NCBI GenBank assembly: GCA_951406725.2 | Contig: OX597821.1 | Location: 60,946,001 to 61,010,000 of the forward strand | Source of the DNA: Octopus vulgaris | Lineage: Eukaryota | DNA length: 64,000 nucleotides | Direction: 5' to 3' | Shown: in pieces, positions 3,912-62,911 of the stretch | Layout of the letters: each line of letters opens with the position of its first letter | How positions within the stretch are numbered: position 1 is the first letter of the stretch | Made by a program: the position numbers and the translations under genes | Notes under the pieces: model-generated | What the model was told of the DNA's origin: nothing | The model's input: only the letters and a program-made list of their open reading frames with translations | Database searches by the model: none

Positions 3912-4247
3912 TTGTACAGTAGATATAATTCTCACGTCTTCGAGGCAGTGTTAGCGATTGACCCTCACGGTGGTAATTGCCTGTTCATACCTCGGATACT
4001 ACTGATACCCTCCGACAACCAGCTTCCCTTCCAATTACGACGCAAGCAGTTTCCAATCAAACCAGCCTTCTCATTCACAGCTAACAAGTCTCAAGGTTAG
4101 ACTTTAGATCGTGTTGGTGTGTTTCTACCCACTCCGATGTTTACACACGGCCAGTTGTATATCGCTATGAACAGAGCAATGGACACAGCTAATTTGAAAA
4201 TTAGTGTTGATCAAACACAAAATATCGTTTACAAAGACGTTTTGTAA
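3912..4247 (+). mobile_element. Helitron RepHel PIF1-helicase C-terminal fragment (pseudogene)
   Basis: FIPRILLIPSDNQLPFQLRRKQFPIKPAFSFTANKSQG*TLDRVGVFLPTPMFTHGQLYIAMNR...NIVYKDVL* contains the C-terminal PIF1 helicase motifs with one internal stop. Confidence 0.9.
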
Positions 4248-7200
4248 ACGGAATAATATCATGAATATGTACTATGTAAAGATGTACATAAGCATAATCA
4301 AAACCAACTGTTATTTATATTTTGTTACATTTCTCATACCATATTTCAGTATTCATACGTAAAGTAATTATTATTTTCCACCCTCTTTTCATTTCCCATC
4401 GTAGATGGGTAGGTTTGCTAGTTTTTAGCCAATTCGGTCTTATACCAACTTTGTGGGTGTATGTTGATACAAGTATTTTGTTTGATACAAGTATTTTGTT
4501 TACAAAATCTGCACATGACGTGTATTTATATTTAACAGGTACGAGATAGGTTCCTAATATGTTAATATGTCGGATGTAAAGCGAAGTAAGTTAAGAGTTA
4601 GAAGACCAAAATAGCATGATACTGTAGAATTTAGTCAACATCTGGTTTAACATCACCTTCTTGTTCCCGAGGCCCTTTTCTGGAAGCCTACTTTGCTGTA
4701 AATTATGCTGTAAATAACCGAGTTATCATCTCCCGTCTAAGGATGATTTGTTTTCCTTCCAAACATTTTGTGTTTACTGAAAGTGTAATATATTATCTCT
4801 GACATCAAACGTAATTAATCTGTCAACGAAAGTATAAACGTAATCAACGACTCTCTATTAAGTCTTCTCATTAGACTCATTAGACTAGAGTGAAGTATCT
4901 CTAACTTAATTGTAGGATTTACTCTTTGCTGTCGAGCTTCCATTTCTGTTTGTGATTGTGAAATATACTTCTCAGACTACTATTATTGTCATTAATGTAA
5001 ACATTTGCATGACAAAACAATGGTTGATTCTATGTAGAATGTAGTATTTGACATGTTTTAATGACATCAACACGCAAAATATCATCAATCAGCGCAATTA
5101 TTGCATCTAACATTATAAACAATATTATTGTATCTTTTGTTCGTGGGCTTTCATTCTAATCCGTTCAAACTGTCAAAGTAGTTAGAATCTACCATAGCTA
5201 CAGAACAAGTTTTTTCATAAGTGTCTTAAAAACCTCAAATTGTTTTGGAGAAACAGTTTTGAAACATTTTTAAATATATTGATTTATTTTACTTTACATA
5301 AGACAGTTTCATTGTTTTTATTTTTCAGGTACGATCATTAAATTGTATATGTAGATATTTCAACTTGTCATATCAGTCTTATGATTAATTTTAAACAACA
5401 TAAAATATATTAATTTTATATGCCATAAAATGTTGACTTCAAAGCAAAGTTTAAAAAAATGATTATTTCTCTTGTTTTGCATTATTTCCTATTTATTTGT
5501 TATTTCTATGTCAGCAATATATTTAACGGGAAACTGGCTAAAGATTATATACAACGAAAATAGAAAAAAAATGAAGTAAATATAGCAATTGTGAAAAATT
5601 CACTGATATAAAAATAAGAATGATAGCAAAAATTTATTTATAAGCTGAAATAGAAAACTTTTATGTAAAAACCTCCAGATTATCTCGGGAGATATAAAGT
5701 GGAAATAAATATAAAAAAGACATCAGAAGTATATCCCTAAATGAAAAATAAAAAGTATAAATGTTTTATACAAACATTTCAGATTAAAAAATACAACAGC
5801 ATGGATGAAAGAATCAGTAAAGATAAAAATGTTCGTGAAAATGTTTTATGAGTCTTACGTAGATCGAAGTTGCTTACAATATCGATGATATAGTTTTTCA
5901 GCTTTAAAAGTTGAAAACTGTAATTAGAACCATGATTTCTGCCTGTATGTAGTTAACTATCGCTATACAACCTCAACAAGTGTTATATAGTCGTCTACAG
6001 TGAGTAGATAATATTATTCTTATATGAGGATTAAATGATTCTCTCTTTTAGTCTTATAGCTGCGATTAATTGGGATTTAATCCAATATATTTAATTTATG
6101 GTAACCTAATCCTAATCTCGAAACCTAATCTCGCTAATATTCGGCTACTCTTATTTCATGTAGACCACGATTCGGACCGTTGGAGAGTTTCTTGAATCAA
6201 GCAAAGTTTTCTAGTGATCTTTGTCATAAAATCGATTTTGATTATGTTTTTGTGACTTACAATTTAATTTAGATTTTAGAAACGCCATGAACATCACATC
6301 TACCCATTTCCAATCCGAATATAAACATCAGGCTTAATACATATTTGGTGAATAATTAGTGCCCTAATCTGTGAGTTATGATGATGGATTCCGGAATGCT
6401 GAATATTTAAGTTAAGGTACAAATCACTTCAAAGTCGTCTGAATCACAGCAGTCATATTTTTAGTAAATCCTCAAACCTCCATTCATGCTGTACTTTGTC
6501 CTAAATATGTCTTTGTCCTAAATGCGACATTAATATGTTAATGTTAACTTGTGATGGTGGAGACAAGCATATTTTGGAAAAAAAATTCTGAGTAACTTGC
6601 TTTCAATTTCAGATTTCAGTTACTTCATTAAGGATTTGAGATAGTAGTCCGCTCTTCGCATCTTTTAATTTTCCCTTTTTATAATTTAAATTTTCAAAAA
6701 AATCTTCGATTCTCAAATCGAGAAGACTGAAATAATCTTGTATGAAGCGTTTTGGGCTCATAGCTAATAGATAAAATGTCAGTAAAAGTCCCATTAAATG
6801 ACTGCAAAGAAAAGACAGGCTCTACTTGCTTCTTGGGAAAGGAATAGCTATCCTTGAGTTCAATTTTGATTTAGTGTAATGATTTGGTTTACTTTTGTGA
6901 CGGAGAGAAACAATACAATTTAAATGTTTTATTGTACTACCCGAACACACTAAAGAAGGCATAGACCATACAACAGCATTAAAAACATTAATAAAAGAAG
7001 GGCATTAGTCGGCTTTTGTCTTCATTCAGAGAGCTCCTGCATCTTAATTTTTTAAGGAACAATATGTTGTCGGTCAAACCGCTGGAAAAAGCATCCGTTA
7101 TCTCTCCTATTTTCTAAAAATAACAGTAAATAATACAAACCATGATGTATTGTATGTATTACTGAAAAAAGATAGATGGTTAATGTTGGAATGCCGACTA

Positions 7201-16772: not shown

Positions 16773-17215
16773 CAGGAGTGGCTGTGTGGTAGGACTCTTG
16801 CTTCCCTGCCACATGGTCTCGGGTACAGTCCCACTGCATGGTACCTTGAGCAAATATCTTCTACTTATAGCCTCGGGCCGACCAAAGTCTTGTGAGTGGA
16901 TTTAGTACATGGAAACTGAATGATGCCTGTCGTATATATATATATATATATATATACATATATACACACACATATATGTGCGTGTGTGTGTGTGTGTGCG
17001 TGCGTGTATGTATTTATGTGTCTGTGTTTGTCCCCCACCATCGCTTGACACCCAGTGTTGGTGTGTTTGCGTCCCCGTGGGGTAGCGGTTCGGCAAAAGA
17101 GAACGATGGAATAAGTACTGGGCTTAAAAAAAAGTCCTGGGGCTGATTAATTCGACGAAAGGCGGTGCTTCGGCATAGCCACAGTCGGGTGACTGAAACA
17201 AGCATAAGAGAAAAG
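16773..17215 (+). mobile_element. SINE family 2, near full length
   Basis: Head CAGGAGTGGCTGTGTGGTA, CCTTGAGCAA core, internal (TA)/(TG) microsatellite, tail GACTGAAACAAG. Confidence 0.85.
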
Positions 17216-17298
17216 AATATATATTATGTAGATAGGGCAAAAATTCAAGCTGTGCTCTCTTGAAGCTCATCTGCAGATTCCAGTGTTACAAAGTTGTG

Positions 17299-18535: not shown

Positions 18536-18734
18536 TATGTAGATGTCATATTTGTGTGAGGTATGCATAAGAGTTGAAAAATACTGGAAAAGATATTTTG
18601 CAGAGTAATTAGATATCAAACCAGGAAACTGGCAAAAAAATATATCGTATTATTTATTCACCATTACATATGTGTCATATGGTAGTAGGAGGTACAGAAA
18701 TTGTACATGTAGGAGAAACATGTAAGACATATTT

Positions 18735-18965
18735 TACTCTTTTACTTGTTTCAGTCATTTGACTGTGGGCATGCTGGAGCACCGCCTTTTGTCGAGCAAA
18801 TCGACCCCAGGACTTATCCTTTGTAAGCTTAGTACTTATTCTATCGGTCTATTTTGCCGAACCGCTAAGTTATGGGGACGTATAGACACCAGCATCGGTT
18901 GTCAAGCAATGTTAAGAGGACAAACACACACACACAAACATATACACACATACACACCTACACAC

Positions 18966-19020
<55 letters not shown>

Positions 19021-19125
19021 CACATATATACATATATACGACGGGCATCTTTCAGTTTCCGTCTTCCAAATCTACTCACAAGGCTTTGGTCGGCCCGAGA
19101 CTATAGTAGAAGACACTTGCCCAAG
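18735..19125 (-). mobile_element. SINE family 2, 5'-truncated
   Basis: Reverse complement of the 16773-17215 family. Confidence 0.85.
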
Positions 19126-20829
19126 ACTTATTCAAGACAGAGAATCAAATAATATTTGATTTTCTGTATGATTAATTTCTAATACAAGTCTTACACGTTT
19201 CCCTACATATACGTTTTCTACCTCCTACTAGTAAATGTAATGCTGGATAAATAATACCGAAATGTTTTCCAGTCTTATATCTTGATACGTACATACACAC
19301 ATACACACACATAAGCACACACGCACATGCATACAGACATATACGTGGGTGTCTAAGCAGATAAACAACAAAAAGAGCACGAAATGACACAGCAACAGCT
19401 ACTGGAATAGCAGGTATAAATTGTGCAAGGTCTACAACCATGGGAACAGTATTGCACTGATAAATTCCTCAAATATGCCATACTAGAAAAAGGAACAAGG
19501 AGTTGGCAGCGTTTGTAGAAATAGACACGGACGAAATATTTAAGACGATTAATTTGAAGTGTTCTCTGTCATAAACGTATCAAACGGGAGACATCTGGTG
19601 AGAAGTACATCAGTCCTGAAAATGATTGCCTCAAGGGCATATTTTTGTTTAGTTTTTTTCTTTCTAACAAACCTTTATAAGAATAGGCTGTATAAATGCA
19701 CATGACCTATTGACGGTTTTTAAGCAGTGCTTCTTAAGCATCTTCGGTTCCCACGTGAATATGTCATAGCTATAAGCTAGCCAATGCCAGTAGCGCACAA
19801 TCACCCACCTTGTGTCCAGTTATGTCGTTTACGATTCTTTCGACCGATCCTTTTGGAGTGGAGTAGAAGTATTACATAGGAAAGAGATAGATTTAGAGGC
19901 AAATGCTATTCTCCTTCACTCGGATGACATGTCCGAGGACCTAGACGTTAACAGCAGTTATGGTGGCAGTAGTGATTTATAAGTTAGTAACACGTTAGGC
20001 ATCGGCAAAATGTTTCGTAATATTTGAACGTCTAGATGAGTTTGAACGTCGGCATGAAAACGAGATATAAGTTTGCAAATATTGCAAGTTCAGAAGTAGC
20101 GTGAAAATAGGTTGGCCATAGTGCTGGTGGCATTGGTCTCAACAATGTAAACACATACCCAATTATTTTCAAACATGAAAGCAGAATTAGACGGAGAAAC
20201 AATGTAAAAATTAAACAGACGAACAGAGCTTCAAGCATAAACACTTGTAGTTGTACAATTCAAAATACAAAATAAATTGATATTGAAAACATTAATTTGA
20301 GTGGAATAAGCAGCATAAAGAGTACGAAACAACACAGCTAATACTACTACCACCACCACAACACCACCGTCATTACCATCACCATTACGATGGCGACGAT
20401 GACGATGACCACCACGACCACGATCACGACCACCACGTCCACCACCACAACGACCACTGCAACCACTAGACCACAACCACTACGAGGACTACCTCTATGA
20501 CGACCACCATTACGCACATCCTTTCACGTCCTTCTCTGTTGTAGTTAATAGGGAAACAAATGTCAAACGTAAACGAAACAGGATTTAAAGTGGGCCCTGG
20601 CTGACTTGTGACAGGATGTGTGCCATCATGAAGTGTGCTTTCATGAACGGAATAGGCGACATGGAAGCGTTTGATTTGTCTTTCAGATTGATAAACAGAT
20701 GAAGAGGCAGTTAATGCACCACACGCTTACTCACTGCCTAATGCCGCAGTCTATAGATCGTAGGAATAAAAGCTGCAATCTTCATATTTCCCATAACAAT
20801 TCATCATAGCTGTTCATTTTTTTCCCTCT

Positions 20830-22094: not shown

Positions 22095-23012
22095 CAGTAG
22101 TTTTATTTTTATAGCGTGCTTTCACTTCACTACCGAGCGCAGCTCTGTGTGCCTTAGGTATGTGCTGTGATTTGTTGTGATGCTCTGATGGTTATTGTAT
22201 AGAAAGTGTTCTGCCTAGTAGTGCAATTTTCTGTATGTTATATGTGTTTGTAAGTCCTGGTGTTTTTGTTATGTTTTTGTCTGAATATTTTTTATCATGC
22301 CTAATGCACCTACTATGATAGGAATTGTTTCTGTTTTTAGATTCCACATTCTGGTTACCTCTATTTCCAGGTCTTTGTATTTTGAAAGTTTCTCCATTTC
22401 TTTTAGAGACACGTTGTCAACTGCCGGTATTGATACATCAATTAGAAGGCATTTTTTTCTTCATGATCTCTGACAACTATATCTGGTCTGTTGGCCTTAA
22501 TTTCTCTATCTGTGTGTATCGGCATATCCCAGAGTATGGTTGCTTTCTCGTTTTCTGTGACCTTTTCTGGTGTGTGCCTATACCATCTTTTTTCTGTTGT
22601 TATTCCATAATGTTGGCATAGCTTCCAGTGTATGTAGGTTCCAACTCTGCCATGTCTGTGAATATATTCCTTCTTAGCCAGGACTGGGCAGCCAGAGATA
22701 ATATGATTTATTGTTTCTTGTCCATCTCCACATACTCTGCAGTTACTTGCTATATCTCTTTTCATTACATGTTTTTGGTAATTTCTGGTGGGGAGGCTTT
22801 GGTCTTGTGCTGCAATTAAAAATCCCTCTGTCTCTGCTTTGAGTCCTGAGCTTCTCAATCATTGCTGGGATTTTTCTTTGTCTATTTCTTTTGCGTTTAG
22901 TTTAGTCCATTATTTACCATGAATGGGCTTTTCTTGCCATCGCTTCATGGTTCGTTGCTGTTCTATTTTTAGTTTGGATTTCATTTGTTTTATAGCTTTT
23001 GTTATTTCTTCA

Positions 23013-23044
<32 letters not shown>

Positions 23045-26031
23045 TTCTTCTTCTTCTTCTTCTTCTTCTTCTTCTTCTTCTTCTTCTTCTTCTTCTTCTT
23101 CTTCTTCTTCTTCTTCTTCATATTTATTAGGTGGTATGATTTCTTGTTTGTATTTGTCAGCTTCCTTAAATACTGAGAACAGTTTTTTGTTTTGCTCGTG
23201 TTTTGCCGCTATTTGTATCGGTTTTCCTTCCTTCTGAAGTAGATATGTTTGCAGTCCTTTGGTAGTTATTTTATAGTAGTTTTCCAGCTGTATAAGGTCT
23301 CTACCACCTTCTATACGTTGTATATATAGTCTTTCTATGTCAGATTTTGAGTGATGCATCCTAGATCCTGTCATTATTTTTTCTTGTTTTCCTATCTATT
23401 TTGGTCAGTTCATTTAGTGTCCAGTTAAGGATATTGTAGCTGTAACTTATAACTGGGACAGTTAAAGTGTTGATACCTATTATCTTGTTTTTAGCATTGA
23501 GCTCTGTTTTTAGTATTGATCTAACTCGTCTATAATATTCTTTTTTTATTTTCTCTTTCATTTGTGTGTGTTGTGTCTTATCTAGTTCATGGATTCCTAA
23601 GTATTTGTAAGTTTGGCTTTGGTCTAATTCTTTTATTTCATTGGTTTTATCTAGTGTGATGTTACTACTCTTAACTAGTTTTCCTCTTTTCATGGTTACT
23701 TTGGGGCATTTTTCTAATCCAAATTTCATATCTATTTCTTTGGTAAATCCATGAACTGTCTTTAATAGTGTTTCCAGCTGTTTGTCATTTGCAGCGTATA
23801 GTTTTAGGTCATCCATATATAAAAGGTGGCTAATCGTTTTGCCGTAACCTTTATATCCGCATCCAGTTCTATTTAGCATATCAGATAGAGGTGACAGTGC
23901 CAAGCAGAAAAGGAGTGGAGAGAGCGTGTCTCCCTGGAATATTCCTCTTCTAATGGGGATGGCTTTGGTTTTCATGAGTCCCTCTTTTGTTTGGAGCTGT
24001 AGCACTGTTTGCCATTTATAATTGTTGGTGCTACTTTGTTAATGGCTAGTGTTTCGAGGATCCATGTGTGGGGGATGCTATCAAACGCCTTTTTGTAGTC
24101 GATCCAGGCCATACTGAGGCATTTCTTCTTTCTGTGGCTGTCTTCAGTTATGGCTTTATTAATCAGTAGTTGATCTTTACAGCCATATGAGCCTTTGCGG
24201 CATCCTTTCTGCTCTTCTGGAAACAGTTTGTTTTCGTTCAGGTGCTTGTTCAACCTTTGCGATATCACTGCAGTAAATGCCTTGTACAGTGTAGGGAGAC
24301 AGGTTATTGGTCTGTAGTTTTCTGGTTTTGCTGTCTCATTTGATTTGGGAATTAAGATGGTTTTCCCCTTCGTGAGCCATTCAGGCATTGTCTCTGGCTC
24401 TGCTAGTATGTTGTTAAAGTTTTCAGCCAGCTTTTTGTGCATTCCTGTTAGATATTTCAACCAGAAGTTAGGGATCTTGTCATGCCCAGGTGCCTTCCAG
24501 TTGCTTAGTCTTTGCAGTGCCTGGGTGACCTCTTCAGTTGTTATGGGGGTCCAAAGTTGCTCAGATGCTGAGTTTGTTGTTTTAATACTCCTTTTTTTGG
24601 TTGTTTGTTCGCCGATCATATTTCTCTCCAGAATTCTTCCACTTCTTCTGCCGTTGGTGCTGCAGTGATTTCTATTTTATTTTTGCCAAGTTCTTGGTAG
24701 AACTTTTTGGGGTTGGAGTTGAACTTTTTGTTTTGTTCAAAGAAGCGCTGGCGTTTCTCGTACCTGCAGATCCTTTGTGCTTTGGCAAGGATATATTGTT
24801 TCAGCTTTTCTTTTATCTCAGGTAAATCTTTTTCTGTGATGTTATATTTTCGGAGTATTTTTGTTTTCTTTTTGTTGCTCAGTAGCGTTGATTGTCTACT
24901 GATTTCATTAAGAATCGACTGATTTTTTCTCATTTTTTGTATTTTGTTTTGGATGTTATTTATCCACAGAGTTTGTTTGGGTGGTGGTACTCCTGTTTGG
25001 ATGGGTTTGAGTGAGTATCCAGCTTCTTTTGTGGCTGCAGTGGCTGCTGCATATACTAAGTCATTTAGCTCAGTGATATCACTTTTTGTTTCAGTGGTTA
25101 TTAGTTCCGTGACAGCTAGGTTTATGCTGTTTATAATTGGTGTTGTTGTTTCGTCTATTTTGATTTTTGTGAGGTATGGTCGGTGGTCCAATTTGAGCTC
25201 TGTGGTTTTCAGTTCTTTGATTATTTTACTTTTTATATTATCATAAGCATTAGGCTCCCCTTCGTTGTTTCCAGATTTTAGATTTGTGTCGCTTTCTTTC
25301 TTATTTATATGTTTGTTTGCCGTGTTTTGGCTTGTTGTTTGTCGTGTATTATTATGCATCCTTACGGTCTGGGTTTGTTGTTTTTTTTGTTTACATCGTG
25401 TTTGTTGGGAATGTTACGTTTGTCTTCGTGTTTTACTGTTTCAGTGTTTATATTATTGGGCATTGTTGTGTGGCTTCTATCTACATTTTCCTGGTTTAGT
25501 TTTTCTTTTAGATGTTCTATTTCTATTTCTGATATATTTTGTTTTGCATTGAGAATGTATCTTCGTACGTTAGCTAGTTTAGTAGGGTTCATTGCTGTAT
25601 TAAAGTCTATATTTATGTTATTTTCCTTCCATATTTTATATGTATGTGTTGTTGTGTTTTCATTTTTGGGGTAGAGCACTGCTGTGAAGTATGCGTGTAG
25701 GATAGAAATGTATTCCTCACGTGTCCATTTATGTCTTTTGGGTTTTATTTGCGGGACATGTGGAACAACGTCCGGCCCATTATTTTGACGGTCGTCATTT
25801 TCGTAGGGTACCAGTCCGTTCATTTCTGTTGTCACGTTGTTTTGCACGTGTGGTTTTTCGTACATTTTGTGTTGTAAGTTTAATATACGTACCTCCCGAT
25901 TGTTATTCTTGGGTTGAATAATATCGGTGGTATTTAATTTCTTCGTAGTTCCTTTGTACATGGTGTTTGGGGTCGGGGATGATCTGGTGTTGATTGATCG
26001 TAATGTTCCACGCATGTTTACATGTGTTGCG

Positions 26032-26093
<62 letters not shown>

Positions 26094-26230
26094 GTTGTTG
26101 TTGTTGTTGTTGTTTTACTCATTAGAGCGCTCGGTCCTGTTTGCCTCCGGTAGATTCTGTGAGAGCGGACAGCAGCTTGTTGTCAGAGGTCTCACAGGGT
26201 CTCTTTCCGCACATTTTAAGCTTTGATAAT
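22095..26230 (-). mobile_element. Near full-length R4/Dong-like non-LTR retrotransposon (single ORF, RT + CCHC + restriction-like endonuclease), frameshifted
   Basis: RT motifs NWKAPGHD, NYRPITCL, WIDYKKAFDSIPH, GIFQGDTLSPLLF, HLLYMDDLKL. CRVC...HIISGC zinc knuckle, RH, RPDIV, IIVGALG. ORF broken into 6 or more pieces; 3' end abuts (AAT)n. Confidence 0.95.
23010..23118 (-). repeat. (GAA)n in-frame poly-Glu expansion inside the LINE ORF
   Basis: ~35 GAA units between KY and DEEITK. Confidence 0.95.
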
Positions 26231-26483
26231 TAGTTGTTAATCATCATTTGATACCTGGTTGTTATTATCGTTGTTGTTGTTATTATTATTGGATCGTCTC
26301 ATCAGAAGAATCGCCAAAGCATTGACCAAATACCTTGCGATATTTATGCGCGTGTTTGTTATTGAAATATCGGCGGTGCCTACTGTGGTGGGTGATGAAT
26401 CATACTTCAGTTTAGTACGGATTTTACGAAGTTGTCGACAATATTCCTTCCGAAAATGTATGGCTTTGAACCCATTAATAAAA

Positions 26484-26711
26484 TAACCACCACCACCATG
26501 ACAACCACCACCACGACGACCACGACCACCACCACGACGACAACGATGACGACGACGACGACGAACACCACCACCACTACCACCACCACCGCCACCGCTG
26601 CCACCAGCAACACTAGCACCACCACTAGGATCATCATCCTCATCGTCATCGTCATCATCGTCATCGTCATCATCGTTGCCGTCTTCGCCACCGTTGTCGT
26701 CGTCGTCATTG

Positions 26712-26744
<33 letters not shown>

Positions 26745-28165
26745 CCATCATCATGATAATCATCATCATCAGCATCGTTACTATTATCGTTGCAGTGTTC
26801 TGGTTATTGTAGACATATTCAGATCTGAGGCCATTAGTACATAATTGAAAGATGGTCCAGATTGTGATTATAAACATGTAAAATAAAAAAAAAGAACGAG
26901 AAACCCCCCCCCCCCAAAAAAAAAGAGAAGATAGATATTATTTTCGGCAGAATATTGTCGCGTCCAAATCAGATCCATCTTCTGCAGCTCATATAAAGAA
27001 TGTTTACAATGAATATTTGGGATGTGCTGCATCAATCTATCAAGCATCCACTCCACCTCAACGCTACATTACTTCCGATATCTCCGTGTTACTGTTTTAG
27101 CGAGTGGATTCCACATCAGTGATATATCTATCTCCCTGTCATAATATTTCGTAAACCTTTCAATCTTCTTTTTAGATTACCACATCGGTAATCCTACAAG
27201 ATTTGGATATTATGTTTTACGACATCTCAGGAATTTCGCTGTTATATCTTTGACTGCACATGCGCTTCCATATCTTCCTCCCACGTCTGGTGGTGATGGT
27301 GGCGGCGGTGGTAGTGGTAGTGGTTGTGGATGTGGTGGTGGTCGTCGTCGTTGTTATTGTTGTAGTTGTCGTTGTCGTCATCGTCATCACCATCATCCTC
27401 GTTGCCGTCGTCATCATAGACACGATCATCATCAACACCACCACCACCATCATCATGATCATCATCATCATCGCCAGTAAAACTATCCCTTACCACCTCC
27501 ACCATCACCAGCGCTACCACCACCACCACCACCATCTCCAGTACCAACACCATCACCAACACCATACACCACCATCACCATTACCATAATCTTTATGGAG
27601 AGGATCACCACTACTCCGAAGCTCTCATTACCATCATCATCGTCACCATCACTACCGTCATCATCATTATTACCACCGTCACCATCATCATCATCGTCAA
27701 CACCATCATCAACAATATAATTACCCTCACCATCATCTTCATGATGATGATAACCACAATTCCCCTCGCACCGCACTACTACCATCATAATAATCATCGG
27801 CACTACCTCCACCACCAATATCAAATCCAGCACCACCGCTACCACCAATCCACCACCACTATCACTACCACCTCCATCACTAAAATCAAAACCACCACCA
27901 CCCCAGTAACACCATCACCCCAGCAACACCACCACCTCAGCAACACCCTCCACCCCAGCAACACCATCACCCCAGCAGCACCACCACCCCAGCAACACCC
28001 CCACCCCAGCAACACCGCCACCCCAGCAACAACCCCACCCCAGCAACACCACCACCCAAGCAACACCACCACCACTCCACAACCACCACCACCACCACTA
28101 CCACACCACCCCTACTACACCACTCCCACCCCACCACCACAACCACCACCACCACCACCATCATT
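26484..28165. repeat. Compound trinucleotide low-complexity zone (CAC/CAT/GAC) with a CACCCCAGCAACAC-type minisatellite; LINE remnant at ~26940-27200
   Basis: Direct reading; the ORFs here are poly-T/I/V/H/P artefacts. Confidence 0.9.
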
Positions 28166-47484: not shown

Positions 47485-47980
47485 AACGTGCACGGCTCAC
47501 TGGTTAGAGCGTCGGACTTACGAGTTCGATTCTCGGACTGGGCTGTGTGTTGTGTTCTTGAGCGAGACACTTTATTTTGTGTTGCTCTAGTTCATTCAGG
47601 TGTCGAAATTAGTTACTACGTCACTGGTACTAAACTGTATCGGCCTTTGTCTTTCCCCTGGAGAACATCAGTGGCGTGGAGAGAGGAAAATAGTCTCCCA
47701 TAAACAACCTTGCCTTGACCTGTACCTCACATACATACACACAAAATTATAAGTCCTCTTTAAATATGTGTGTGTGTGTGTGTTTCTCCTCCCAACATTG
47801 CTTGACAACCGATGCTGGTGTGTTTTCGTCCCCGTATCTTAGCGGTTCAGCAAAAGAGACCGACAGAATAAGTACTAGGCTTACAAAGAATAAGTCCTAG
47901 GGTCGATTTGCTCGACTAAAGGCGGCGCTCCAGCATGGCCGCAGTTAAATGACAGATGCAATTAAAATAATAAAAGAATA
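47485..47980 (+). mobile_element. SINE family 3-like head region followed by a SINE family 2 3' half
   Basis: GGCTCACTGGTTAGAGCG...GAGTTCGATTC A/B boxes; family 2 tail from 47770. Confidence 0.7.
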
Positions 47981-48139
47981 TATTTGGACAAAGACAAAGG
48001 GAAGGGGGTAAAACCTGTGTCTGTATGTGTACATAATTGGAGCATATTTGTAAAGCTTCGCATATGTTAATAGTCTCTTTAGTGATTTGTCTTGCTTTTT
48101 ACATTTTTACATTTGATGTGTTTATGTGTTTTAAGGATG

Positions 48140-49418
48140 TGAAACCCACCGTTTAAGCAAATTTCTAGACATCTTACGGAAACCCTTGCTGAAATACATC
48201 AAAAGTCTCATTAGAAATGATTTAGACATGCTAGAACCCCAACCAAAAACAATTAATGAAGAGGCAATATTGGTTACCCTCGAAGTTATCAATCTTTACA
48301 CCAGCATCCCCCATGACTATGGAATAAAATCAATTAAATTCTGGTTGGAAAAGTACCCCGAAGTACTCCCGGAACTTATAAACCAGATCTTTATTATTGA
48401 ATCCTTAAGATTTATACTTCAGAACAATTATTTCCTATATGATGACACATACTATCGACATTATTGCGGAATTGCGATGGAAACGAAAGCAGCCCCTGTT
48501 CTTGCGGACCTAATAATGGGTTATTTTGAATTCACCTGATATGAAGTATCTCTTCAGAAATATGGTTACCCATTTTACCTCTACATAAGAGAAAAGTGGA
48601 AGAGATACCTGGATGACTGCTTTATAATTTGGAAAGAGATATCGACACACTTTTGGATTTCAAATCGACACTAAATGATATAAATAGTAACATTCAATTC
48701 ACAATGGACAACTCCCATTTTTGGACATCATGATAAAAAAGTCAACAATCAAATCATAACTGACATTTATTATAAACCAACTGATTCAAAACATTATCTT
48801 AATAATGGCAAAAGGGATTTGCACAATAGTGTCTGATAGAACAACTCTGGACCTTCGTTTTCAAGACCTCAAAACAACGCTTATTAAAAGACAATATCCA
48901 CCCTCACTTATCGACGAGGGAATTAAACGTGCCAAAAAACACCAAGAACAACAAAACAGAATACCACACCTCATCTCAAAACATTACTATTTATATCAAC
49001 ACACAACCCCAGAAACAATGAGACCTTGAACACTACTGTGCAAAATCTTCTTTTACTAACTAGAGATCCAAAAATGAACGACATCCTGAAAACACACAAA
49101 CTCATCAAATATAAAAAGCAAGACAAATCACTAAAGAGACTACTAACAAATGCGAAGCTTTACAAAACAACCACGAAACCAACAATTGAAAAATATTGAC
49201 GACCAAACTGTGGAACCTGCTCCAACCGACTTGAAGGCTCGGATTTACATTTCAAACAAGGACAGAGGTTCAGAATTAAAGCTAGTTTCACTTGTGCCTC
49301 TGAAAACCTAATTTATGTAATAACCTGCTCGGATGGTGGGAACAACTATATGGCACAGACGAGTATGACTTTGAGAAAGAGAACCACTCTACATAAAGAG
49401 CAAATCCGTCCCCCGCAA
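48140..49418 (+). mobile_element. Penelope-like retroelement RT + GIY-YIG, pseudogenised and truncated
   Basis: LVTLEVINLYTSIPH, ILQNNYF..DDTYY...GIAM, WKRYLDDCFIIW, YYKPTD, FTCASENLIYVITC..GNNY..QT; stops and frameshifts. Confidence 0.9.
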
Positions 49419-50012
49419 ATTATAATTTATGCGTCTCGAAACAAACCGATAGAAATTTCTAAAATTCGTTATTACCATAATATAATGGTTAATTGACAAT
49501 TTCTGTCTTTTTTTTTTTCGGCATATTTGGCCTTAGAATTTTTTTTTTGCCCTTATATTGTAAATTATTTATAAATGTAACCTTTAAGGGTATTTTTTGA
49601 TATGCTGGCCATTGATGAAATTTTTTTTCCCGAAAAAAAATTTATCCTACATTAATTATAAATTGTGTTCACTTCCGGATTCTATCAAATCACACGTGCC
49701 TCGAGATGTGCCGAAGATTTTCTATTTTGGATATATTTGGGGTACTTAGGTCTGCTCAGGACTTGGTGTTTACTTTTTCCGTGGGTATGAGTAAGTATTT
49801 CACTTATATCTCGCGTATTTGCCGCTGACGAGGAGAAAATTCTTATGAATTAACTCCGAAATTGGTCCAATACGGTAATAACGAATTTTAAAAAAAATCC
49901 TATCGGTTTGTTTCGAAACGCATAAATTATAATGGTTAATTGACAATTTCTGTCTTTTTGTTCGGCATATTTGGCATTAGAATTTTTCTTTTGACCTTAT
50001 ATTGTAAATTAT
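49419..50012 (+). mobile_element. Retrozyme / Penelope pseudo-LTR-like unit (~447-nt period) with 5' inversion
   Basis: Direct repeats 49481-49568 and 49928-50012; 49419-49476 is the reverse complement of 49874-49933; contains an HHR. Confidence 0.8.
49819..49878 (+). ncRNA. Type I hammerhead ribozyme with intact catalytic core (family C)
   Basis: UUGCCG-CUGACGA-GGAG(AA-AAUUC-UUAU-GAAUU-AA)CUCC-GAA-AUUG(GUC)CAAU-A-CGGUAA. All core nucleotides and three stems present; predicted cleavage after AUA at 49872. Confidence 0.88.
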
Positions 50013-51315
50013 ATATATATATACATACATATATATACATAACAACGTATATATTTATATGTATATACATATTATTATACACATATACCTATACATACTG
50101 TTAGACACATACACACACGCACATACAACCTCAATCATAACTGTCATACGCATGCGAATATGACCTGGGCAAATGTATCACATTTTCTATAATAAGTTTA
50201 GGTTGCTATGTAGTTCTCGAGCTGACATAGTCACTTGAACATCCAGCCCTTGGCCCTGGAAAAAATTCGGAATGCAACATATAGAAGGAAACATGATTGT
50301 AATAGCTATAGTCTAGTAGTAATTTTCAGCTGAAAGGCGTGAAGCAATATGAAAGGAGGTGCTTTGGGGGAGGTGGGAGTGCATCGTACTATTGGTCTTT
50401 ACACGCCCTCCGAGATTAATCGGATTAATGTCCTTAACTTTCGTGTTAATCTGTTGCAAACTGGAGACTGCAGGAAAGACACCTGTTGTGACGAAATTCT
50501 AGATGGCCGACATCTTAGGAAGAATAGATTTCATGAAGTAGTAGAAGTAGTTGGTGGGGAAACTGGATAAGGGTTGATCATGCTTTGGGTGATGAGAAGA
50601 GAAAATCCTTAGTAACGTTAATACGTGGAAAAACATCTCCAGTTTTAAAAGCCTGTTTAATAGCGATAGGAAAGATAGAAAGAGAAGACAGCTTAATACG
50701 TCAACTAGTACCTCTGTAGGAACTCCATAAAATGTTTGTGTGTAGCAGTGGTACCGTTCAAAATGTGAGGCCGGTCCTCTAATATGGGCTTGTGACGAGG
50801 TGCTCTAGAATTAAAGGCAGCGAACATCACCCGCATTTGGGCTAATGTTTATGATTGCACATACTCCACCAACATGCTCAAATAAGTAGGATGATTAACC
50901 AGTACAATTTCATCTTGGAAAACAAATAACGATATGTTATATTTATGATGTTGGGTCTTACAATTCCTTCACTGTGTACAAGTGTTCTGTACGCATTGGC
51001 CTAAATAAATTTAAGGTTGGCATCTGTCGCATCATTCATTTTTACTTGAAGATCTGTGAAAGTTATGGACCCGGCCCTTTACATTTGATTCCTTATATAA
51101 ATCAATAGATGTATGTATTTATGTATAGATGCATGAGATAAAAATCAATCATAGAACAGGACTTATATTTCTGATATTCATTCTGATGGTGGGTTGTATT
51201 TTAAACACACCGACGGCTGTTATTTGAACCGAGAACGAAAGCTGATGCAGATGAACACTATAGTTCTGCTTCACGTTTGCTTCGCAAAACAACATCAGCA
51301 ATAATAATAATAATG

Positions 51316-52859: not shown

Positions 52860-53194
52860 ACTTTTTCGAGCTTTAAACTAATACATCTGTTTGTTGCCTA
52901 TACCACCTGTTTTGTCTTTTGTTTTTTTAGTGAATTCTCCCTATATAAATATATATATACACACCTTATGTTTTTTAATGCCCTGTACCCATATATGCAT
53001 GTATATATACATATATATGTAGATATGTAAATATATGTGTATATATATATATATATATATGTGTGTGTATGCGAACATATATGTGTATATGTGTGTGTGT
53101 ATATATATATGTATATATGTATATATGTATGTATGTATGTGTATATATCTATATATCTATATATATATATATATATATATAGCATATGTATTTC

Positions 53195-53942
53195 TTTTAT
53201 TTCTTTTACGTGTTTCAGTTATTTGACTGCAGCCAGGCTGGAGCATTGCCTTTAGTCAAATACATCGACCGCAGGACATATTCTTTGTAAGCCTAGTACT
53301 TGTTCTATCGGACTCTTCTACGGAACCGCTAAGTTACGGGGACGTAAACACACCAACACCAGTTGTCAAACAATGTGGCGGGACAAATACAGAAACATAC
53401 GCAAATATACACATATGTATAGAAACACACACACACCTATATATATATATATACAGACAGACACACTTACACACACAACGGACATTCTTCAGTTTCCGTC
53501 TACACAAGGCTTTGGTCGGCCCGAGGCTATAGTAGAAAGTACTTGCCCAAGGTGTCACACAGTGAGACTGAACTCCCAACCATGTGATTGAGAAGCAAGC
53601 TTCTTACCACATACCCACGTCTGGGTTGCGGTTTCAACATGGATTTCCTGTTTGATACTACACTAACTATTCGTAGCCCCGGTACTGGACGTTTACTCTG
53701 TCTTTACCCTTTTACTTGTTTCAGTCATTTGACTGTGGCCACGCTGGAGCACCGACTTTAGTCGAGCAAATCGACCTCAGGATATATTCTTTGGATGCCT
53801 AGTACTTATTCTATCGGTGTCTTTTGCCGAACCGCTAAGTTACTGGGACGTAAACACACCAGCATCGGTTGTCAAGCGATGTTGAGGGTGGGGGACAAAC
53901 ACAGACACACAAACATATACACACACATACATACATACATAC

Positions 53943-53987
<45 letters not shown>

Positions 53988-54146
53988 TACGACGGTCTTT
54001 CAGTTTCCGCCTACCAAATCCACTCACAAGGCTTTGGTCGGCCCGAGGCTATAGTAGAAGACACTTGCCCAAGATGCCGCGCAGTGGGACTGAATCCGGA
54101 TCCATGTGGTTGGTAAGGAAGCTACTTACCACATAGCCACTCCTGA
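53195..54146 (-). mobile_element. Two tandem SINE family 2 copies (53195-53615, 53700-54146)
   Basis: Both are reverse complements of the 16773-17215 family, including heads. Confidence 0.88.
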
Positions 54147-57126
54147 GTGATTTGTTTTAGGCCATGGATTTAGGGTACGTCTACTGCGTGAACAGAATCA
54201 CTGGCACGTTGGATGTCCGATATCTTACTGACTTGGTCATGTATAGCTTTCAAAAGCATCGATGACAAGTCTTCTCACTACATATTTTAGGCTTACTGTG
54301 TAGAAGCAATATTTTATATGTAGGAATTTGTTTCTAAAGTGTTTTGATAATGTCTATGAAGCGATACTGATATATTTATTATTATTCCTCGAGTCGTTGA
54401 TAAGTTTATTGGCAATGTGTCAGAAATGCCCACTGAATAATAAGTGGCGTAATGCAAAGCTTCTTGGCTTGGAATGTTATCAATATCGCAAGGTCTAATT
54501 CACAGAAGAACAACTATTGCTTTCCGTACAAATCCATTGTAATATTATTTCAAGAAATATATATTTACATAAAGAAACAGGCCTGCGGCACATGCATTTA
54601 AACATTTATCGAATAATTTGTTTAATCCCAACGAAAACATACAACAGGCTGTAAATACGTCAAACTAGATTTAACATGAAATACATGAACGTTTGTTGGT
54701 AAAATCAGTAAACTTCTATTGTGTATAACTTTCACTCTCTGCATGAACAGTAATGGATGTGTGGAACAGTATATGATTGAAATGCACTAATACATAATAT
54801 TTGTGATAATCGTAATTCTTTTATATGAATATAGCTACGCCAACTAATATTTAACTAATTTATAGAACTCAGACGCTAATACTATACTCGAAATGTTGAA
54901 CAATTCCTGATAAGTGAATCATTAAGTAACTGTTTTATATATTTATAACTATTCAGTTGCTTTTCACTAGAATTTATTGCCGATTGAATACGTTTTATTG
55001 CATCTAATTTAGTGTAGTAGGTCACAAGTCTTAGTCATTCAATCTTGTGTATTTTATGAACCAAAACATCATATTAGATCTGTTTAATTTCTGTGACAGG
55101 CGGAATTAATGTTGTTATAATGAAAGGCTAAGATGTTAGTAGCTTAGTTTCAGAGCGTGAACAATTAAATATTATAATGAAAAGAATATATAGTATATAC
55201 TCTAAAATAAAATACCATCTAAAGCAAAGCATTCTCCTGGAGAACGAAAGACTGAAGAAAAATTCCTAAGGAATTATATCTCACCTATTTTTGAAGCTGT
55301 AAAATTAGAATATGTACATTCCATATACATAGCACATGTACATGCTATATACATGCTATATAGCATATTTACATGCTATATACATGTACATATTGCACAC
55401 ATACATGTTTATATCCACACGCTTACAAAACACCTAGTTTTTTGTAAGCCACCCCACCGCATTCCACTTTCTGTCTCTTATTCTTTTCGGTCCAGTTACT
55501 TCAAAATCCCAGCCATAAGAAGGAGATCAGCCTTTTTCTATTTTCTATTTTTATTAACCTGTAAATTGTAAATCTTCAACAGTTCTTTTCCTTTTATATT
55601 TCGTTGTACATCCAAAAATTTTGCTGGCCGTTGGCGTTCAGGATTTCTTTACAAAAACCTGCAATCACTCCGTGTGATGGAGTAATAAGATCCTGACTTT
55701 TCTTATTTCAGTCTGGTTATTCACCTTGTAGAATCAATTTACCTTGCGTCCTAATTTCCATTTAGATCATAGAAAGGGACGGTCGACTTACTATTCTCTT
55801 TGGGAAAAATCGGAGACAATGCTCGGTAGAAAAACCAACAACCGTACTTTATTTTTATGGCGCCTTCCAAGATTTTCGACGCAATAAAAGGAAAGTAGTA
55901 CAGGAAATCAGGGTACCTGAAAAATATTATTTCCTTTCACAAGATATTCTTGTTATAGTTTGTTCAGGCATAAAATCTTCTGAATCCTAAGCAAGGTTAT
56001 GTCTTGTTTTCTGTATTGTTTGCTCTTTATTGTGTCACTGTTATCTTTGGCTGTATTTTCAAAGACTTGATTAAGGCAATAAGATTTATATTTTGTAAAG
56101 CGGAGGTTTATTTAATCACCCTGATTCAAAGTCATTCTTCTGTTTAAGGCAAATTGTTTTTGCTATTTACTATTTACTGATGATACAGCACTTATGGACA
56201 TTGTCGTTTGATGATGCTCAATTGATTGTGAAATGTTTCTTGTATGTCGCTGAAACCTTTGATCGCACCATGAACTATAGAAGAAAACGAACATAATTCA
56301 CCAACAAAAACCAGTCCCTAAGATAATGAAAGAGCTAAAAATCACTCGTCCGTTTGTAATTTTCTTACAAACCACATACAAGTGGATGGCCAAGATACAA
56401 AATAAGCAAAATCTTTACTTTATTTCAGTAGAATAAAGAATACATGAGCTGCTCTTTCAGATGAAATAAAAATAAGTTATCAAAAGCAACTGCCTCTTAT
56501 GGTCACTTGCAGAACATTTTCTGGAACAAAAGTGAAGGAAATGATAGAATTACATTTAGTATTTTCTTTAACTTTATTATTCGGTTCATTTGAATCCGTC
56601 ACAATGAATACACAATGTATATAATGCATTATGTCAGATAACCATGTTGTTTTCCATGTAAACCATGGCTTGAGCAGGAAAATCCATAATCATCCCACAA
56701 AATCGGGTATATAGAGTACCAATATGGTAATACTAAGAGTAGAAAGTCTAAGTATACATGGATTCGAGTAACCATGGATGGAAGTGCAAGGCCATATGAT
56801 CAACAACTTTAGGTGACGATCTGAAACACGTACACACTTCCACCCATTCTCTATGCCTACGAGGTGAGGACAGCTCATCCTTTTTTGATCTGTATCGAGT
56901 AATACAAACAAAAGAAGAGCGGTCCCGTTCATCCTGTCGTCGTTCTTCTTATTTATTGATACTGTTGATGTTGTCCTTCTTGTTTTTACTGTTCCGGTAG
57001 TTAAATTATAATGTCACTTCGTTTGTATATTCACGTGCGATCCTACAAACTTCGTATATACTATACAGAACATTCCTTCGAACTTCCTATAAGTATATTG
57101 TTGATTTCCCTTATTAGCGTCACTTA

Positions 57127-62477: not shown

Positions 62478-62639
62478 TTATGAGAAACGTCATTTGTGAC
62501 CCACGAGGAAATGTACTAGTTAATATCAGTAAGCATTTTACCTGTCAACATACCTTATTAATTTAAAAATCTATTTCAAAACAAGGAGTTGCTCTGTTAC
62601 TGTTTCTCCCTCTCTATTTGTATATATATCTATTTTATT

Positions 62640-62830
62640 CTTTTTCTTGTTTCAGTCATTTGAATGTGGCCGTGATGGAGCACCGCCTGCAGTCGAGCAA
62701 ATCGACATCATGACTTATTCTTTGCGAGCCTAGTACTTATTCTATCGGGATCTATTGCCGAACCACTAAATTACGGGGATGTAAACACACCAGCATCGAT
62801 TGTCAAGCGATGTTGGGGGCAAACACAGAC
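62640..62830 (-). mobile_element. SINE family 2 3' half
   Basis: CTTGTTTCAGTCATTTGA...GTAAACACACCAGCATCG. Confidence 0.85.
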
Positions 62831-62833
62831 ACA

Positions 62834-62911
<78 letters not shown>

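Follow-up and report, generated by a model that had tools for sequence, protein, structure and literature searches.

The window (the whole 64-kb stretch of Octopus vulgaris DNA analyzed here) is AT-rich eukaryotic DNA. On its forward strand, positions 48138-49418 hold a decayed Penelope-like ORF, truncated at both the 5' and 3' ends, which encodes the reverse transcriptase (RT), a CxxC-type linker and the first part of the GIY-YIG endonuclease, and carries stops and frameshifts. Among named proteins, those closest to the ORF at 48135 come from Octopus sinensis (84%) and O. bimaculoides (73%). It shares 57% identity over 422 amino acids with P0005, a protein with RT and GIY-YIG domains whose Pfam scores lie just below the curated cut-offs. 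RT and a GIY-YIG domain at the C-terminus are thus found in a single ORF, the arrangement that defines EN+ Penelope-like elements (PLEs). Alignments to full-length RT and GIY-YIG relatives end at 49418, with the final 57 residues of P0005 absent, and the GIY-YIG frame does break off where the repeat unit described below sits, as the sequence-only reading had claimed. Among the loose ends listed, contigs of other family copies run on as coding sequence past both 48138 and 49418. Three of the linker cysteines (CX2-5CxxC before the endonuclease) are invariant in all 60 relatives and two are kept in the window copy; because linker cysteines are present, the ORF is marked as a putative Neptune or Nematis type PLE.

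Where the direct ORF is truncated at the 5' end, it is bordered by an inverted fragment of its own sequence (48047-48140, minus strand), which is a copy of 49081-49166 (80 identities, 6 mismatches and 8 gap bases against the reverse complement). The remainder of this arm is missing beyond the segment copied from 49081-49166, and a leftward extension beyond 48047 was rejected since the alignment degrades there. This inversion lacks a ribozyme nearby, and therefore the locus makes such junctions without one. The sequence-only reading had mentioned neither this inversion nor the (TA)n tract that lies on the right side of the locus. Elsewhere in the window, a dispersed repeat family (200-450 nt, 70-88% identity, likely a SINE) has copies at 16773-17234, 18730-19126, 47761-48002, 53172-53626, 53701-54148 and 62607-62911, one of which borders the PLE locus on its left. 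A decayed LINE-like element occupies 22442-26937 on the minus strand and matches RVT_1 at 23361-24035 and at 23972-24673.

The sequence that follows the ORF is a head-to-head arrangement of a non-coding repeat unit, numbered here so that 49873 is +1, the first base after a predicted ribozyme cut. An inverted short arm (49419-49476, minus strand) corresponds to the unit from +2/+3 to +61. It aligns to the reverse complement of 49874-49933 with 54 identities, 4 mismatches and 2 gap bases, exactly the relationship that had been proposed for the leftmost ~58 bp. The junction itself (49476-49480) has 1-4 nt common to both arms, depending on the parse. On the plus strand there follow one full 447-nt unit with 32% GC (49481-49927) and a partial second unit (49928-50012), such that the unit is present 1.2 times. 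The repeats starting at 49481 and 49928 match with 81 identities, 4 mismatches and 3 gap bases (a divergence of 5-7% at the locus), and the period of ~447 nt holds. The outer end of the short arm (+61) and the right end of the second unit (+140) are likely the first and second RT start sites, respectively; these candidate fixed ends, 79 nt apart, are known from one locus. The longest stop-free frame in 49476-50012 has 69 codons, and the unit could be rejected as coding sequence or as the missing ORF end because it had no tblastn match to the PLE protein. A (TA)n / TACA-rich tract at 50013-50130 is the likely insertion target. No target duplication matching this tract was found at the left end, where the flank is the cut ORF, and no poly(A) tail is present at the locus.

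The unit contains a type I hammerhead motif at 49819-49878 on the plus strand. It consists of a 6-bp stem I (49819-24 with 49873-78), CUGACGA, a 4-bp stem II with a further 5-bp hairpin, GAAA, a short near-palindromic helix III and the triplet AUA, with the cut predicted after 49872 (49872/49873). AUA is a cleavable hammerhead triplet. With thresholds set to the values observed in the window motif itself, a hammerhead descriptor had its sole match in the 64 kb at 49819-49878, and none of 100 dinucleotide shuffles matched at equal stringency; the intact core and the position of the predicted cut were thus confirmed at the descriptor level, the core having the CUGANGA, GAAA and NUH elements and three helices, with an open-ended helix I, that mark a type I hammerhead. 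The motif was unmatched by the Rfam hammerhead models at gathering or E<=10, a negative that depends on how sensitive these models are to the variant. Its 6-bp helix I, 4-bp helix II and short palindromic helix III are those of the animal hammerhead architecture, with helix II longer than canonical. Animal hammerheads of dimer-type design with a short palindromic helix III are described in the available part of PMC4209133. The pairing probabilities of stems I and II were 0.76-1.0 in five contexts and that of helix III was 0.01 as a monomer, and the near-palindromic helix III forms a self-duplex of -10.3 kcal/mol. The folding model thus predicts that the hammerhead would need a second copy and cut only as a dimer, in which case RNAs with a single ribozyme would stay uncut. 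The circular fold of the unit had a z of -2.8, with none of 60 shuffles as stable, which is indirect regarding a circular RNA. In the preprint bioRxiv 10.64898/2026.07.22.740005, as far as its available text goes, 8 of 9 Xenopus dimers failed to cut.

The position of the junction relative to the predicted cut was the main claim of the sequence-only reading, and the distance of 1-3 nt that it gave is consistent with the alignments. The three cheapest parses place the inner end of the inverted arm at 49874 or 49875 (+2/+3), and parses costing 0.5 more place it at 49869-49872 (-3 to 0). The direct, long arm begins at 49921-49929 in unit phase, which in the preceding unit corresponds to +49 to +57; it therefore overlaps the outer end of the inverted arm by ~5-13 nt. 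This arm is 530 nt long and reads through the uncut hammerhead. A random breakpoint would fall ≤2 nt from the cut with a probability of 1.1%, and any of four breakpoints with 4.4%; the chance of one breakpoint alone landing this close is 1-5%, for a finding that was itself chosen for that coincidence.

To profile other copies of the 447-nt family, four contig sets were aligned to 48000-50012 at 80% likeness, yielding 6252, 4153, 4465 and 522 contigs (run X12 was taken as RNA by guess, and contigs cannot show RNA ends). Both the ORF and the unit are highly repeated, and bins within the unit were far above single-contig depth in all three DNA runs (4153-6252 contigs per DNA run across the whole stretch, contig depth being no copy number). 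The unit thus has many genomic copies, as retrozymes do. The depth ratio of the unit to the 3' part of the ORF was 1.5 and 2.0 in organism A and 0.2 in organism B, which hints that unit and ORF are amplified separately, with depth again no measure of copy number. No junction at the cut was seen in the best 15 of 118 joints, nor in the best 12 of the 23 joints that have intervening letters, and no contig bridging the ORF end to the unit was seen among the joints listed. Loose ends behind 49464 (30, 20 and 3 contigs, among the best 24 of 1956) continue towards or through the cut, and they were rejected as cut-site breakpoints as they are plain minus-strand copies.

Two further features of the contigs concern the diversity of the family. 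At 49836, a loose end in run X2, helix II is connected in three contigs to another upstream sequence that has a CUGA core itself, which may represent either a second family of hammerheads or a further inversion junction. Between 49632 and 49699 the depth falls ~tenfold, with 18 contigs carrying other sequence before 49688, and the window copy therefore likely belongs to a minority subfamily there. A family-specific pattern had no matches in metagenome contigs, and a loose pattern was found at 32 viral loci. The repeat library of PMC13282606, judging from its available part, may contain the family.

Related PLE ORFs were found in eukaryotic DNA binned into bacterial assemblies (144 matches in G005, 29 in G001 and 27 in G003). 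Protein scans for PLE relatives detected 39 loci in one case, one marginal locus in another and none in the others. The three assemblies and the loci L033-L071 are filed as bacterial yet have many PLE ORFs, and likely represent eukaryotic host DNA in bins. Within this group, L042-L071 (OZ2199xx-OZ2200xx) include many near-identical PLE-like RT copies that recur along long contigs; these lack an endonuclease match, and the descriptor detects no hammerhead in them. One full PLE RT-endonuclease (P0008) is named 'ribosomal protein S27E' in its source, likely a mis-annotation.

For G005, 40 stretches were retrieved and the DNA around 21 hammerhead sites was used as queries, giving 19 analyzed families, one of which had no genome-wide search under its own query; many searches scored the best 40 candidates, and copies may be missing. 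A count of the hammerhead pattern in G005 was uninformative versus its control. In all 12 related ORF-hammerhead pairs, which were hand-picked, the hammerhead is in sense orientation and 124-536 nt behind the ORF end, a pattern that the window hammerhead fits in position and strand. Copies mostly end at fixed sites past the cut, often two per family, for example at +55/+157 (F1), +67/+173 (F6), +38/+114 (F20), +45/+102 (F21) and +71/+154 (F8), with the first fixed end ranging from +27 to +92. Head-to-head insertions with two fixed ends 57-106 nt apart were observed at L074 (10633-10776), L235 (1337-1588), L186 (1338-1561) and L304 (226-566). Among the eight head-to-head junctions in the copies listed, the arms end at different sites in six, four are mirror images, and two have the offset layout of the window, with short arms ending at +5 and, in F20, at -128. 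In the former insertion the short arm spans +5..+55 and the long arm +65..+157. Such layouts occur in near-identical (97-100%) PLE pairs.

The 5' ends of the 89 G005 copies listed were beyond -300 for 47 and inside the query for 34, the other 8 being dropped at locus edges; most copies read through an uncut hammerhead site. Between -60 and +30 there were 21 independent 5' junctions, one of which was at -2..+3, versus 1.4 expected by chance. Five were at +1..+7 (1.6 expected, P 0.019) and six at +1..+12 (P 0.049), both windows having been picked after looking, and in random sets some 12-nt window reaches six junctions in 72%. Excluded from the count were the 8 locus-edge rows, everything beyond -60..+30 and one duplicate. 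Mirror pairs contributed a single arm each, and the long arm that begins at +65 was left out, as were two rows at -39, taken for a subfamily boundary, and one at -32, taken for an internal deletion. Five junctions were added by hand, one of them at an approximate position. A 39-nt copy in a canonical-hammerhead family (L230, 1501-1539) starts exactly at +1 after the predicted cut. The G005 relatives are distant families in one genome, and they therefore set expectations without deciding the case of the window family.

The locus shares features with two kinds of known elements, insofar as the available sections of the cited sources describe them. Like non-LTR retrozymes of animals (PMC7229834; bioRxiv 10.64898/2026.07.22.740005), it carries a type I hammerhead, whose helix III is short and palindromic, in a tandem unit that is low in GC, non-coding and a few hundred bases long, with many copies and an association with PLEs; these retrozymes have been proposed to derive from PLE terminal repeats. 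The tandem, low-GC and non-coding character that defines a non-LTR retrozyme is found in the window unit, whose length of 447 nt exceeds the range of 170-400 nt given in PMC7229834 and falls within the 51-972 nt of the 2026 preprint. Unlike an active retrozyme as the preprint defines it, with two ribozymes, the window locus has 1.2 units and one hammerhead, and therefore falls outside that definition. Like Neptune and Nematis PLEs (PMC8557442, PMC3846280, PMC11167929), it has an RT with a C-terminal GIY-YIG, linker cysteines, a sense hammerhead behind the ORF, head-to-head arms with two different outer ends, and a (TA)n flank. It differs from published PLEs in the spacing of the ends (79 nt versus 30-40), in arms that are offset rather than mirror images, and in the broken link between ORF end and unit in this copy. 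The spacing in the relatives (up to 106 nt) likewise exceeds the published 30-40 bp tail.

We consider the locus to be a two-start-site Penelope insertion of a retrozyme-like unit, itself likely derived from a Penelope terminal repeat, with the short arm truncated in the ordinary way near the cut (probability of about 0.55). Ordinary insertion is likely because flipped pieces are normal for PLEs and because breakpoints in the distant relatives are not clearly concentrated at the cut. In the available sections of PMC8557442, and likewise of PMC3846280, PLEs show inverted 5'-truncated copies, tails and TA-microsatellite targets. PMC11167929 reports, in its accessible part, that an anole PLE protein, in purified form, both nicks and extends the two strands, and that reverse transcription begins at two internal sites whose spacing equals the genomic tail; by analogy, the window ends at +61 and +140 would fit two PLE start sites. 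A Neptune/Nematis-type PLE protein would bind a tandem transcript of the unit, and both strands of AT-rich DNA would be nicked. One cDNA would start at +140 and read 530 nt through the uncut hammerhead, the other would start at +61 and stop after 58 nt, and the two would be joined at the 1-4 nt microhomology. The fixed ends of the relatives, the head-to-head arms, the ribozyme-free second inversion and the helix III probability of 0.01 as a monomer support this two-site model. Against it are the weak excess at +1..+7, the L230 copy at +1, the spacing larger than the published tail, and the absence of a target duplication with the cut ORF as left flank.

The sequence-only reading had interpreted the junction as a genomic record of in vivo self-cleavage, and this claim is partly supported. 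Its geometry stands, in that the arms fit one RNA starting near the cut and copied from two start points. The role it gave to cleavage is weakened, as there is no clustering of the relatives' 5' junctions at -2..+3 (1/21 versus 1.4 expected), inverted 5' arms are known for PLEs, a second inversion in the locus lies far from any ribozyme, and the outer ends at +61/+140 match the fixed start sites of related families. The corresponding two-site insertion, in which copying of the short arm would have reached the 5' terminus of a hammerhead-cut RNA and the junction would record self-cleavage in the cell, is one that we hold to be clearly less likely than ordinary truncation. It would place the inner end where the cheapest parses do (+2/+3), and one RNA would account both for this end and for the long arm halting beside the first start site, which has a 7% probability by chance. 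The like insertion in G005 (+5..+55 and +65..+157), the weak excess at +1..+7 and the +1 copy in the canonical-hammerhead family point the same way, but the relatives have no excess at -2..+3, ends at +4..+11 could reflect RT stalling at helix I, and the third insertion of the same layout (F20) ends at -128. With a helix III of the dimer type, cutting by the first ribozyme would be possible and the one left behind would stay intact (PMC4209133, in its available part), animal retrozymes have linear monomers according to the accessible text of PMC7229834, and R2 junctions track ribozyme cuts in the corresponding part of PMC3774820; however, for the anole element, no RNA reads ending at the cut are reported in the available sections of PMC11167929, where ribozyme mutants inserted normally in vitro. 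One 4-nt microhomology parse at the window junction straddles the cut and would require an uncut template, and the lack of a family joint at the cut among the best 15 of 118 and 12 of 23 is a weak negative.

Two further mechanisms are less probable still. In a fold-back, one cDNA from a tandem or circular template would have stopped near 49921, self-annealed by microhomology and copied 58 nt back, which we consider unlikely. At 49871 there is a 4-nt match that includes one wobble, the monomer having 10 sites of this kind in all, the inverted piece of the ORF derives from 940 nt inside the direct copy, and self-priming has been proposed for PLE inversions (PMC3846280, as far as available); however, an outer end at +61, inside the range of the relatives' first fixed ends (+27 to +92), and the near-continuity with the start of the long arm would both be left unexplained. 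It is very improbable that the layout arose by rearrangement after insertion, through repair or a deletion between older copies, or that another LINE produced it by twin priming of the L1 type. The last 57 codons of the ORF and any target duplication are missing, the repeats are 5-7% diverged and an RT-bearing LINE-like element is present at 23361-24673, all in keeping with such an origin, yet the same layouts occur in the near-identical (97-100%) PLE pairs of G005, and neither a poly(A) tail nor a target duplication is found. Classic L1 twin priming was rejected because both of these are absent. The locus resembles the L1 case in the available text of PMC2837659 in that the inverted 5' part is nearly continuous with the direct part and the inner junction has short microhomology; it is unlike it in lacking poly(A) and target duplication and in a second priming site that looks fixed rather than random.

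As the evidence stands, the window locus adds one more example to element types already known. A literature search, which was sparse in subscription papers and is weak in this respect, did not turn up retrozymes reported from octopus, nor PLE junctions located at a hammerhead cut. The role of the hammerhead in PLEs is called unclear in the available parts of PMC8557442 and PMC11167929. R2 with its 5' HDV-like ribozyme (PMC3774820, available sections) provides a precedent for genomic 5' junctions that reflect a ribozyme cut, and differs from the window in ribozyme and element class, the link having been shown there across many copies and in vitro. As a tentative proposal, which we regard as rather doubtful, PLE proteins might copy one ribozyme-cut RNA from both fixed start sites simultaneously, the short arm running to the 5' terminus generated by the hammerhead and the long arm halting at the first site, such that the junctions would form a genome-wide, countable record of in vivo cutting by the hammerheads of Penelope elements and retrozymes in the course of transposition. 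Should the inverted short arms of many copies prove to end at the cut, in vivo cleavage would be visible in existing assemblies, and head-to-head insertions would also be tied to two-strand, two-site priming. The high copy number of the window family makes counting junctions at the cut simple.
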